Below, piece after piece: positions 10,805-13,192 of a stretch of 64,000 nucleotides of DNA. Within the stretch, counting starts at the first letter, position 1. Each line of letters begins with the position of its first letter. The DNA lies in the NCBI GenBank assembly GCA_948934525.1, contig CAQZSK010000001.1, forward strand, positions 357,095 to 421,094. Direction: 5' to 3'. This DNA is from an uncultured Clostridia bacterium (lineage in GTDB: Bacteria; Bacillota; Clostridia; TANB77; CAG-508). The notes under the pieces were generated by a model, which saw only the letters and a list, made by a program, of their open reading frames with translations, was not told the origin of the DNA and did no database searches. Both the position numbers and the translations under genes were made by a program.

Positions 10805-13192
10805 ATGAAAATTTCAAAGAAAAAAATTGAGCAAAAAAACAAGGGTATTATTCTGGTTGCTTTGGTAGTAACCATTGTAGTATTATTGATCTTAGCAGGA
10901 ATAACAGTTACTTATGTAATAGGAGATAACAGTGTTTTTGAGAAAGCATCAGAGGCTAAATTGAAAACAAATATAGCACAATGGCAAGAAAGATTAGAAA
11001 CAGCCAAAATGCCAGTTATGATAGAAGGATTGGGAACATTTAATCCAGATAAATATTTTAACTATATAGAAGAACAGGAGATTATAAATAATAAAACAAA
11101 AGATGTAATCGATAATGGAAATGGCACATATGAGGTAACAACAAAGCCAGACTATGTATTTGAAATAGAATTAATACCAGTTAAGGAAGAGCCAAAAGAT
11201 ATAAAAATAGAGTATTTAGGTCAAATGGGAAAATTACCACCAAAAATAAAAAGTATAACTGTAACAGGGAAAGCAGGAGCAAGTATAGATGTAGCAGTAG
11301 AAGTTGCAAGGTTAGATAATGGAAAATTAAGTTATTACTATAGGGAATCAAGTGATGATAATTCAAAAGAATATATAGAAGTAAAAAAAGAAGTAACAGA
11401 CCTAACAGCAACCTTAACAGGGCTACAAGAAGGCAAGATATATGATATTAAAGTAGTGGTAAAGAATAAAAATGGAGAGCATAGTTTAGTAGCAAAAGAA
11501 GCAATTCAACAATTAGTGAAAACAATTGCATTAGATAAAACAAGTGTAACAATGGAAAAAAATAAGACTTTACAATTAAAAGCAACAGTATTGCCAGAAA
11601 ATGCAGAGAATAAAAAATTGGAATGGAGTAGCAGTAATGAAGAAATAGCAATGGTAGATGAGAAGGGAGTAGTTACAACCAAAGAAAATGGGAATGTTAT
11701 TATAAAAGTAAAATCAACAGATGGAGGAGAAGCAGAGGCAAATTGTAATGTGAAAGTAGCTGTATTAGCAACAAGTATTAGTTTGAATAAAACAACAGAA
11801 ACAGTAGCGAAGGGAAGCATGAAAATATTAGTAGCGACAGTTCTCCCAGAAAATACGACGAATAAAACAGTAAAATGGGAAAGTAGCAATACAAATATAG
11901 CAACTGTAGATAGTAATGGAGTGGTTACAGGGAAGACAACAGGAAGTACGACAATAACAGCGACAACAACAGATGGGACTAACAAGTCAGCAAGCTGTAC
12001 AGTAACAGTACCAGCAATAACAACCGCAATAGAATTAAATTCAGTAAGGGCGAGAATAGCAACAGGGTATACAAGATGGTTGACAGCAACAGCAATACCA
12101 AGCAATGCTAGCCAAGAGTTTGAATGGACAAGTAGTAATACCAATGTGGCAACAGTAGATAATAAAGGAAAGATAACAGCAAAAGCAATAGGGACAACTA
12201 CCATAACAGTAAAAACAAAAGATGGAACAAACTTAAGTAAAACGTGTAGTGTAACAGTAGCAAGTGGAGTAGATATAACGACCTTAACCAGTATACAATC
12301 GAGTAATAGAGTGGCAAGAGATAATTATGGAAATTTAATCACAATACCAGGAGGGTTTAAGGTATTAACAAGCCAAGCAACAAATGTAACACAAGGAATT
12401 GTTATACAAGATAATGAAGGCAACGAATTTGTGTGGGTACCAATAGATTCAATATCAAAAGGCGCAAATGTAAGGGCAGATGATATAAGATTAGGAAGAT
12501 ATGATAATTTTACAACGAAAGATGTTAGTGGAAATTATGTGCCTAAACAAGATGCAGATAATTATACACAAATAGTGACAATAAACTCTTATTATCAAGA
12601 ATTAACAAGCAATTCTGGAAATACAGCAGCAAAAAGTTTGAGTACATTTATTAGTAAAAGCAAAGTGAATGGTGGATATTATTTAGGGAGATTTGAAGCA
12701 AGTTACAAGAATAGTAGTCGCTGTTATAGTAAAAAATCAACATCAATAAGAAATAGGGATAGTACAACTTTAACAAGTGGAATGGTGTGGAATTTTATTA
12801 TTCAGTCTGATGCAGCAACAATAGCAAGAAATTCATTTACAAGCAGTTATGTAGACAGTGATTTGGTAAACAGTTATAGTTGGGATACAGCAATTATATT
12901 TATTCAGAAGTATTCAGGGAATAGTAATTATGCAGATGAAAAAATCAAATTCAGTATAACAAATACAGGAGCAACTAATGATAAAGTATGTAATATTTAT
13001 GAAATGGCTTCGAATTTTAATGAATGGAGTACAGAGTATAGCGTAAGTAATATATCAGGAACCCTACAGCCATGCGTTGAAAGAGGGGGGACAGGACTGG
13101 CAAGTGGATCTTATTCAAGCCGCCGTAGTAGTAGCCCGATTAACAGCAGTGACTGGACTAAATCTTTTCGAACACTTTTATATATAAAATAA
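10805..13192 (+). CDS. Membrane-anchored surface protein: basic leader plus hydrophobic N-terminus, four Big_2 repeats, C-terminal FGE-sulfatase/C-type-lectin-fold domain
   Basis: Start at ATG 10805 (MKISKKKIEQKNKG-IILVALVVTIVVLLILAGIT); the track uses an upstream TTG. Four ~80-aa Big_2 units (LDKTSVTMEKNKTLQLKATVLPENAENKKLEWSSSNEEIAMVDEKGVVT...). C-terminal NEWS...RGG...FR motifs of the FGE/SUMF1 fold. Last ~130 nt are GC-enriched relative to the gene. Confidence 0.75.
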   Translation: MKISKKKIEQKNKGIILVALVVTIVVLLILAGITVTYVIGDNSVFEKASEAKLKTNIAQWQERLETAKMPVMIEGLGTFNPDKYFNYIEEQEIINNKTKDVIDNGNGTYEVTTKPDYVFEIELIPVKEEPKDIKIEYLGQMGKLPPKIKSITVTGKAGASIDVAVEVARLDNGKLSYYYRESSDDNSKEYIEVKKEVTDLTATLTGLQEGKIYDIKVVVKNKNGEHSLVAKEAIQQLVKTIALDKTSVTMEKNKTLQLKATVLPENAENKKLEWSSSNEEIAMVDEKGVVTTKENGNVIIKVKSTDGGEAEANCNVKVAVLATSISLNKTTETVAKGSMKILVATVLPENTTNKTVKWESSNTNIATVDSNGVVTGKTTGSTTITATTTDGTNKSASCTVTVPAITTAIELNSVRARIATGYTRWLTATAIPSNASQEFEWTSSNTNVATVDNKGKITAKAIGTTTITVKTKDGTNLSKTCSVTVASGVDITTLTSIQSSNRVARDNYGNLITIPGGFKVLTSQATNVTQGIVIQDNEGNEFVWVPIDSISKGANVRADDIRLGRYDNFTTKDVSGNYVPKQDADNYTQIVTINSYYQELTSNSGNTAAKSLSTFISKSKVNGGYYLGRFEASYKNSSRCYSKKSTSIRNRDSTTLTSGMVWNFIIQSDAATIARNSFTSSYVDSDLVNSYSWDTAIIFIQKYSGNSNYADEKIKFSITNTGATNDKVCNIYEMASNFNEWSTEYSVSNISGTLQPCVERGGTGLASGSYSSRRSSSPINSSDWTKSFRTLLYIK

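Follow-up and report, generated by a model that had tools for sequence, protein, structure and literature searches.

The 3′ segment of a surface-protein gene from an uncultured Clostridia bacterium (hereafter gene A) is probably a variable region (VR) of a diversity-generating retroelement (DGR) by descent. Gene A itself is probably a remote target that has been orphaned, is slowly losing its imprint and is no longer, or only rarely, rewritten, and its product is probably a surface-displayed binding protein. It would thus belong, as an ordinary and remote member that may be decaying, to a type of system already known. All coordinates refer to the window, the whole 64-kb stretch of DNA that was analysed.

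Architecture of gene A and its paralogue

Gene A comprises the following features:

10805–13192, + strand: gene A, 795 aa, from the list of open reading frames (ORFs), with a Pfam Big_2 match (E 4e-46)
10805–10924, + strand: N-terminal MKISKKKIEQKNKG followed directly by IILVALVVTIVVLLILAGITVTYV, a helix of signal-anchor or pilin-like type that shows 56% identity with gene B and is kept across family homologues
11516–12265, + strand: three Big_2 Ig-like repeats (Pfam PF02368, three stretches, E 4e-46)
12287–13189, + strand: C-terminal family domain of 301 aa with a predicted CLec/FGE-like fold (more than 550 homologues; AlphaFold model)

The length of 795 aa is counted from the ATG (813 aa from a TTG at 10751). 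From its N terminus, the protein is laid out as a basic leader, a hydrophobic pilin-like helix, an fn3-like region, Big_2 repeats and the C-terminal domain. A preliminary description made from the sequence had counted four Big_2 repeats, where Pfam gives three and one weak fn3-like match below the cut-off. We infer a membrane-anchored, surface-displayed binding protein, in which the leader and helix would hold the protein in the membrane, the fn3-like region and the three Big_2 repeats would form a stalk, and the C-terminal domain would display a binding face for which the last ~145 nt of the gene code. This exact protein forms a cluster of one and occurs on one NCBI contig (429,736 bp) and one Logan contig; it is on record as one sequence in two assemblies, possibly from the same underlying data. 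No record was found for the protein at the left edge of the window.

A paralogue lies downstream in the window:

46509–47753, + strand: gene B, 414 aa, with an FGE-sulfatase match and no VR imprint; its 5′ end (46463–46508) is cut off by a 1-nt insertion

The preliminary description had read this protein as running from 46463 to 47753, which is not one ORF but contains 43 stops; the intact ORF is 46509–47753. The ATG at 46463 belongs to a different reading frame, with one extra base near 46490 parting 'MKNTELENR' from 'GIILVAMVV...'. The reported kinship of the two genes was borne out at both ends, with 56% identity over 61 aa at the N terminus (E 5e-16) and 27% identity over 347 columns in the C-terminal domain (E 1e-14). 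Neither GC nor NNC-codon enrichment was detected at the 3′ end of gene B, which is a frameshifted paralogue of gene A without a DGR imprint. Upstream of gene B is a lone T4SS coupling-protein gene (44288–46333).

The N terminus of gene A shares with type IV pilins and pseudopilins a basic leader ending in Gly and then a hydrophobic helix of ~20 residues, but differs from them in lacking Glu at +5 and Phe at +1; the missing Glu, noted earlier, is an Ala. A class III (prepilin) signal had been proposed for this leader. The Gly of such a signal is present, the +5 Glu is absent and Pfam gives no N_methyl match for gene A, a profile matched by 1 of 29 family members. Similarity to pilin-type sequences is only weak (GspG, E 0.08; Geopilin PilA-N profile, E 0.043), and the prepilin reading was not sustained. 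No pilus assembly genes were found among the window ORFs scanned with Pfam.

The C-terminal domain

The AlphaFold model of the gene A C-terminal domain had a pLDDT of 82 and a pTM of 0.86; a separate model of the last 192 aa was poor (pLDDT 59) and was set aside. The closest PDB structures to the domain model were CarF, PorK, Mtd, TvpA and FGE, all weak matches (E 0.02–0.1, TM ~0.3), and the best matches across PDB and viral structures were FGE-fold proteins, Mtd, TvpA and phage tail fibres. Gene A has no match to Pfam FGE-sulfatase (PF03781) at the gathering score. Gene B does match this profile, scoring 25.5 bits where the cut-off is 23.3 (E 1.2e-5), as do 3 of 29 family members at E 0.01 or better. 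The family appears to share its fold class with FGE/SUMF1, with gene B and these three members reaching the Pfam threshold region, while gene A lies outside the profile. The FGE/CLec-type domain of the preliminary description thus stood as far as the structural matches and gene B are concerned, though not as a Pfam match of gene A, and the model, with its weak structural scores, suggests a domain of the FGE/CLec kind.

Two DGR variable proteins of CLec fold, Mtd of Bordetella phage BPP-1 and TvpA of Treponema denticola, likewise have their VR right at the 3′ terminus of the coding sequence, in an FGE/C-type-lectin-like domain, and share NNY-type variable codons with the gene A family. Unlike them, gene A has a pilin-like N-terminal helix, a Big_2 stalk and no adjacent DGR, and the sequence similarity of TvpA to a family profile does not go beyond E 0.37.

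A GC-rich, NNY-enriched segment at the 3′ end of gene A

13030–13177, + strand: VR-equivalent segment of gene A, with a GC-rich core at 13055–13175, equivalent to the block that is hypervariable in the alignment of the family

The 3′ end of gene A had been described as GC-rich and A-poor, and we confirmed this, with 50% GC over the last ~120 nt. The core at 13055–13175 has 50% GC and 29% A, where gene A as a whole has 33% GC and 44% A and the genome 30% GC. It ties as the most GC-rich 120-nt stretch in the 64 kb, a value reached by only 0.05% of such stretches; the window has three further peaks of this kind, two of them in tRNA regions and one in a template repeat (TR) at 26.7 kb.

The codons of the segment are also shifted. 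At 13091–13165, 16 of 25 codons are NNY, ending in C or T (gene body 35%; p 0.004), while 6 of 25 are NNC, about four times the 5.8% of the gene body (p 0.003). The segment uses CGC, CGT and AGC where the gene body has AGA and AGT, which is a codon effect and not an amino-acid effect. When ~95 family genes were compared, gene A had an NNC fraction of 0.22, an NNY fraction of 0.63 and a GC excess of +0.15, whereas the clearly imprinted VRs had NNC fractions of 0.41–0.74 and NNY fractions of at least 0.74. The codon imprint of gene A thus falls between that of members bearing a DGR signature and that of members lacking one; in its nearest relatives (L121 and L129) almost no imprint remains. GC islands of equal size occur in dozens of family members.

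The segment aligns with a hypervariable block, from RGG to SFR, of the family alignment. By eye, the block in gene A comprises 25 codons with a Y-[T/S]-S-x-R core, as in the TRs of two related loci (L193 and L226), and this likeness, taken with the family alignment, shows homology between the gene A segment and the TR-templated VRs of the pairs at L193, L202 and L226. The 3′ end of gene A, CACTTTTATAT, is that of the VRs of verified targets. The GC core ahead of CACT reads TTTCGAACAC in gene A, compared with TTCCGCCCAC in the verified targets. The earlier identification of the 3′ end as a DGR VR is thus supported by homology at the level of the family; the GC and NNY imprint points the same way but is fainter than in clearly DGR-imprinted relatives, and the DNA searched contains no cognate TR.

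DGRs act on relatives of gene A

More than 550 homologues of the C-terminal domain were found in gut Clostridia. In the family alignment the scaffold is conserved and the RGG-to-SFR block is hypervariable, made of NNY-encoded residues. On three related contigs a family gene lies beside MutS-like, Avd and reverse transcriptase (RT) genes, and two of the three hold TRs. The genes beside the TR/VR pairs of L193 and L202 are MutS_I-like, bAvd and RVT_1, and in these pairs 17 of 20 (L193) and 19 of 24 (L202) mismatches fall at TR adenines. The L202 TR also fits six more VRs, each with 2–4 mismatches at non-A and 13–29 at A positions; one of these, the VR of L180, has no RT of the DGR lineage within 10 kb. 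Nine contigs with an identical RT carry seven distinct VRs, with 18–25 A-site mismatches against 1–4 others. The DGR reading is supported at the level of the family, and some of its members are clearly diversified in human-gut populations.

Systems with these parts have been described by Wu et al. 2018 (PMC5758913), where the portions relevant here cover an MSL accessory gene, architecture D and remote targets. Relatives of gene A resemble the cassettes in those portions in adjoining MutS-like, Avd and RT genes and a TR, and in having non-adjacent targets, as for Treponema and lineage-4 DGRs; they differ from the window, where the cassette is absent from all 64 kb. The same portions do not mention the N-terminal architecture of the family, the word 'pilin' occurring 0 times. 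The adhesins of Bacteroides type V pili (bioRxiv 10.1101/2024.11.15.621889) may offer an analogy, as DGR-diversified surface adhesins of a gut bacterium, although they belong to another phylum and another pilus type, if gene A is a pilin at all.

Gene A as an orphaned or an active target

In the 64-kb window, tblastn, a YxDD motif scan and Pfam revealed no RT or avd gene, as had been noted before, and the same scans revealed no MSL gene. The earlier proposal that any DGR would act in trans or be extinct is the right frame for gene A. A cognate TR for gene A was absent from the window, from 9 kb of right flank (L216), which holds housekeeping genes only, and from 1.06 Mb of related loci. A degenerate A/M/R/W pattern searched on the genome contigs matched only poly-A and masked N runs, with 0 of 120 loci containing the VR, and was non-specific. 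The RT homologue search returned 3303 matches, of which the best 120 were all gut RTs at least 76% identical; none of these 120, all of them close relatives, lies on the 429,736-bp contig. A scan with the family alignment found no relatives of the gene A family in viral contigs, and the last 300 nt of gene A had no match in phage and plasmid collections.

We favour the following course of events. In relatives, the cassette of MutS-like, Avd and RT genes, TR and RT-14 RNA yields an adenine-mutagenised cDNA of the TR, which overwrites the 3′ segment of the target. What stays behind in the AT-rich gene is a GC-rich island, along with NNY codons. Gene A would be a non-adjacent target of this kind, with the imprint partly preserved. 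Because it has no DGR parts of its own nearby and its imprint is only partly preserved, it is probably no longer or rarely rewritten. The gene is homologous to DGR targets, DGRs act on its relatives and the available DNA contains no cognate TR or RT; present inactivity is what we infer.

It is rather unlikely, if well worth weighing, that gene A is a currently active remote target, rewritten at 13030–13177 in trans by an RT elsewhere and a cognate TR, possibly a stand-alone TR/RT-14 unit. The GC excess of +0.15 lies within the range of clearly imprinted family VRs, NNC codons are enriched about fourfold, the 3′ end resembles the VR ends of verified targets, non-adjacent targets exist in the family, and a gene for a DGR-type template RNA, equipped with promoter-like site and terminator, lies in the window itself (see below). 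Yet no clearly imprinted VR has NNY and NNC fractions as low as those of gene A, the GC core ahead of CACT departs from that of verified targets, no protein variant is on record and the searched DNA contains no TR for gene A.

A template-repeat-like segment followed by an RT-14 RNA

The impression that the window holds no DGR parts proved mistaken, as a DGR-type template RNA is present at 26692–27011:

26692–26867, + strand: TR-like segment with 11 AAC/AAT codons, reading '...YRGGNGVFSFNGNNNWTSNNNYGRGVAVVGTGL' and then a stop; a GC peak, not cognate to gene A
26868–27011, + strand: RT-14 RNA (Rfam RF02921), full length, 76.8 bits against a gathering score of 48.1, ending in a terminator hairpin

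The TR-like segment ends in ACTCTAATAT, as do the TRs of L193 and L202. The assignment to RT-14 is based on the covariance score above gathering and on covariation support: across 11 copies, 17 pairs show compensatory changes, 86% of cells are paired and 0 of 500 shuffles reach the observed score. The RT-14 motif also directly follows the TRs of L193, L202 and L226. The whole unit (26645–27016) consists of an intact promoter-like site, the TR, the RT-14 RNA and a terminator, 13 kb from gene A. As a template of gene A or gene B the TR was rejected, no VR in the window matching it. No protein record was found for the 59-aa ORF that it encodes, and a 59-aa ORF beside the RT in L218–L227, considered as a TR-type ORF, is unrelated. 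Weinberg et al. 2017 (PMC5737381) described the motifs RT-1 to RT-19 near RT genes and speculated that some belong to DGRs. The window contains a full-length match to RT-14 from that set; in relatives of gene A, RT-14 directly follows the TRs of proven DGRs, whereas in the window and in L210–L215 no RT was called or detected near the RT-14 units in the flanks covered.

Since this stand-alone unit has an intact promoter-like site and a terminator, it suggests that a functional RT may persist elsewhere in this genome; that would speak for current activity and not for erosion. A broader form of this idea, to which we give still less credence than to an active gene A alone, is that the DGR lineage uses stand-alone template genes (promoter, TR, RT-14 RNA, terminator), scattered or in tandem far from the RT, and that gene A is no fossil but is kept variable by an unlinked template. 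L210 and L215 carry arrays of three TR-like and RT-14 units. These tandem units were rejected as simple TR/VR pairs, being 25–33% different with an adenine excess of differences of only ~1.7-fold. No protein target of the 'MLWYPSCAGWHG...' units was found among 5.8 billion proteins, and for that reason a variant of the idea holds that they may have no protein target and may be RNA genes.

The GC-rich 3′ end might also have arisen outside any DGR, through its content of Gly, Ser, Arg and Pro, through ordinary positive selection acting on a binding loop, or through recombination with foreign DNA. In favour of this, the data contain no TR or RT to pair with gene A, and the NNY excess is modest (p ~0.004), but such an origin is very improbable, given that TRs template the corresponding block in relatives, that CGC, CGT and AGC replace the AGA and AGT of the gene body as an effect on codons, and that dozens of family members have equally large GC islands.

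The hairpin downstream of gene A

13227–13266, either strand: hairpin of 17 bp, read as a bidirectional intrinsic terminator between convergent genes

The VR of BPP-1 is followed by a cruciform that serves as a DGR target-recognition element. The preliminary description had pointed to a strong hairpin after the stop codon of gene A as an aid to DGR homing. The hairpin is real and strong (17 pairs, z = −6.5 compared with shuffles). It starts 35 nt past the gene A stop and abuts the stop (13269) of a convergent 1455-aa gene on the − strand; both strands score as terminator-like at this site between convergent stops, and of the two the − strand has the better T-run. Four verified VRs were folded (L193, L202, L180 and L218), and none is followed by a hairpin of comparable strength. 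The homing role was thus not upheld, and the hairpin is best read as a terminator common to gene A and the convergent gene. That it is a target-recognition element like the BPP-1 cruciform, as its strength and its place downstream of a VR-like segment might suggest, is hardly credible in view of its T-runs, its terminator scores on both strands, its position against the convergent stop and the verified targets that do without one.

Implications

DGR targets far from their DGR escape annotation that is based on cassettes. As gene A shows, such remote targets can be flagged by comparison within a family together with an island of high GC and NNY codons where an AT-rich gene ends. If stand-alone templates are real, a single RT elsewhere could serve many dispersed targets, and units of TR and RT-14 RNA without an RT, if functional, would alter how DGR templates are searched for. 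The family to which gene A belongs joins a pilin-like anchor to a CLec head, and gut Clostridia contain more than 550 of its members. Because some of these are clearly diversified in human-gut populations, the family proteins probably matter when the cell meets hosts, phages or neighbours.

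Gene A and its paralogue in the window

The window (GC about 30%) is origin-proximal chromosome, with gidA, gidB, parA and parB at 634-5162 and sporulation genes beyond; the host is a spore-forming member of the Clostridia. Two genes of the family under study lie in it:

10805-13192, + strand: gene A, 795 aa if it starts at the ATG, 813 aa if at a TTG further upstream
46509-47753: gene B, an intact ORF of 414 aa with an FGE-sulfatase match just over the Pfam threshold

The paralogy of A and B proposed in the preliminary description was borne out by alignment of both their N-termini (61 aa, 56% identity) and their C-terminal domains (347 columns, 27% identity, E 1e-14). 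The single ORF first described for gene B, 46463-47753, does not hold up: that span contains 43 stops, and the ATG at 46463 is in a different frame from the 46509-47753 ORF. Compared with the family N-terminus, gene B carries one surplus base near 46490, which puts the hydrophobic helix ('GIILVAMVV...') in a different frame from the basic leader 'MKNTELENR'. This frame break (46463-46510) means one of three things: gene B is a pseudogene, the sequence has an error here, or translation starts internally at 46509.

Gene B is immediately preceded by a lone T4SS coupling protein gene (44288-46333; T4SS-DNA_transf, TraG-D_C). Its surroundings are housekeeping genes (DnaJ-like, Ddl, Mur ligase), with no other conjugation genes among the neighbours scanned. 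Two 2.4 kb stretches, 5520-7905 and 47754-50191, the second beginning at the gene B stop codon, are 56–59% A and only 4–6% C on the + strand and contain degenerate short A-rich repeats; no convincing ORF was seen in either (the longest runs without a stop are 190 and 108 aa), nor any Rfam match. Further along, the overlapping ORFs at 53435-53821 and 53739-54500, the latter with PCRF and RF-1 domains, look like the programmed +1 frameshift commonly found in release factor 2.

Fold and leader

Pfam searches of gene A returned three Big_2 repeats and a weak fn3-like region under the cut-off, and nothing in the last 300 aa. An FGE fold had been assigned to both C-terminal domains, which for gene B is supported by its Pfam match; for gene A the assignment leans on structural matches. 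The AlphaFold model of its C-domain, a confident one (pLDDT 82, pTM 0.86), had best PDB matches that were almost all FGE-fold (CarF, PorK, FGE, EgtB, Mtd, TvpA), including the two solved variable proteins of diversity-generating retroelements (DGRs), Mtd and TvpA, at weak scores (E 0.02–0.1, TM about 0.3). Viral matches were tail fibres and a SUMF-like protein. The family profile reaches TvpA and FGE at no better than E 0.4–0.9. These scores therefore make a C-type-lectin (CLec)/FGE fold a consistent, but not strong, prediction.

The suggested prepilin-like leader stands as to its pilin-like form and its absent Glu at +5, but pilin profiles matched weakly (Geopilin E 0.043, GspG E 0.08; N_methyl in 1 of 29 family members). 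We treat the helix as a putative signal-anchor of pilin-like form.

The gene A family is diversified by DGRs

The 301-aa C-domain of gene A has more than 550 homologues, mostly gut Clostridia proteins of 350–450 aa with the same N-terminal helix; several named NCBI homologues are paralogues within one MAG. Their alignment shows a conserved scaffold, '...DKVCNIxDMASNxxEWSTE...PCVxRGG' and 'SFRPLLYxK', and between its RGG and SFR parts a hypervariable block of residues that codons ending in C or T (NNY) encode.

We fetched 80 metagenomic loci encoding relatives and sought repeats of each gene's 3' end. Two loci, L193 and L202, yielded a template repeat (TR) paired with a variable region (VR), with 17 of 20 and 19 of 24 mismatches, respectively, at TR adenines. 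Between target and TR, L193 encodes a MutS_I-like protein, bAvd and a reverse transcriptase (RT; RVT_1 1e-20, IGNYTSQ and YLDD motifs); L146 has the same three genes on a contig that stops at the RT, ahead of any TR. The cassette is of the MutS-like (MSL) type, architecture D, of Wu et al. 2018 (PMC5758913).

The L202 TR also fits the VRs of L196, L183, L179, L180 and L195 (two copies), with 13–29 mismatches at adenines and 2–4 elsewhere. The L180 gene is a paralogue, 88% identical with different flanks; within 10 kb of it there is no RT belonging to this lineage. Nine contigs sharing an identical RT protein carry seven distinct VRs, which differ from the TR at 18–25 adenine sites and 1–4 other sites. 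From the TR/VR pairs, the shared TR and the VR variation, it follows that the family is diversified by DGRs in gut populations, non-adjacent copies included.

Damage is frequent in DGR cassettes of this lineage. That of L202 is degraded by an internal deletion: Avd is reduced to 80 aa and the RT to a fragment of 103 aa, with TR and RT-14 RNA intact (5412-5944).

In L193, an insertion sequence (DDE transposase, 3437-4696) sits between target and MSL gene. Among the ten contigs encoding RT P0191 (L218–L227), nine have a TR cut after about 95 nt (for example, L218 8030-8160) by inserted DNA carrying two small ORFs, and have lost RT-14; only L226 has both in full. Even so, the VRs of these truncated loci vary from contig to contig over their whole length. 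Tandem paralogues occur in L161, L195, L196, L151/L152 and L149; in L161 the VR core is identical between the two copies, and both L195 copies fit the L202 TR.

A TR-like unit with an RT-14 RNA at 26.7 kb

26645-26673: promoter-like site (TTGAAA, 17 nt, TAAAAT)
26692-26867: TR-like segment, AAC-rich and GC-rich, immediately 5' of RT-14
26868-27011: RT-14 RNA, full-length Rfam match (76.8 bits)

This unit is absent from the preliminary description. The segment at 26692-26867 encodes '...YRGGNGVFSFNGNNNWTSNNNYGRGVAVVGTGL' followed by a stop, ends in ACTCTAATAT and resembles a TR. RT-14, whose structure covaries (11 copies), follows the TR in the same manner in L193, L202 and L226, and the unit (26645-27016) has its own terminator. 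The segment has no match in the window, gene A included. Searches of the window for RT, Avd and MSL genes found none, as the preliminary description had stated for RT and avd.

The only homologues of its ORF among 5.8 billion proteins were ten ORFs of 58–82 aa, and no long protein there had a matching C-terminus. Homologous units occupy syntenic or other chromosomal sites, singly (L211 10001-10337) or as three-unit tandem arrays (L210 979-2099; L215 1179-2494, syntenic with the window), each with its own RT-14; in L211–L214 the unit comes after an AMP-binding enzyme gene. No RT gene was called in the available flanks (L210–L215). In unit 2 of L215 the third codon is a stop, which indicates that the ORF is probably not what matters. 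The units differ by 25–33%, with a mild adenine excess among the differences.

Directly upstream of the unit in the window is a 185-aa ORF (26084-26641) without Pfam or NCBIfam match. L210 and L215 have a 179-aa ORF at the equivalent position; that of L210 matches it at the C-terminal end, to which the comparison was limited.

Gene A as a putative DGR target

The GC-rich, A-poor 3' end reported for gene A was confirmed by a window-wide scan: 13055-13175 is 50% GC and 29% A (gene overall, 33% and 44%) and ties as the highest-GC 120 nt, its rivals being two tRNA regions and the segment at 26.7 kb. Within 13091-13165, NNY codons (16/25 against a gene-body share of 35%, p 0.004) and codons ending in C (NNC; 6/25 versus 5.8%, p 0.003) are enriched, and arginine is encoded by CGC and CGT (AGA and AGG in the body). 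The gene B 3' end shows none of these features.

We compared VR and gene-body composition across about 95 family genes. VRs with a clear imprint have a GC excess of 0.13–0.24 and NNC of 0.41–0.74; a no-imprint group has no GC excess. Gene A falls between (GC excess +0.15, NNC 0.22, NNY 0.63), and hardly any imprint is left in its closest relatives, L121 and L129. We infer that gene A carries a DGR imprint that is not fully refreshed any more; the intermediate values would be accounted for equally well by a cognate TR with unusual codons.

The hairpin at 13227-13266, initially read as an aid to DGR homing, folds strongly (z = −6.5), adjoins the stop of a convergent gene of 1455 aa and is scored as a terminator whichever strand is read. 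No comparable structure followed the four verified family targets that were folded, and the hairpin is no evidence for a DGR.

Compared by eye, the gene A block from RGG to FR has 25 codons, equal to the L193 and L226 TRs, with their invariant core, Y-[T/S]-S-x-R, intact. Like verified VRs, it closes with CACTTTTATAT, where TRs have CACTCTAATAT or CACTCTAGTAT. A brute-force adenine-tolerant scan and repeat search found no cognate TR in the window, nor was there one in the 9-kb right flank or in 1.06 Mb of fetched loci. The central idea of the preliminary description, a DGR-family VR in a CLec-type surface protein and remote from any DGR, was right in kind.
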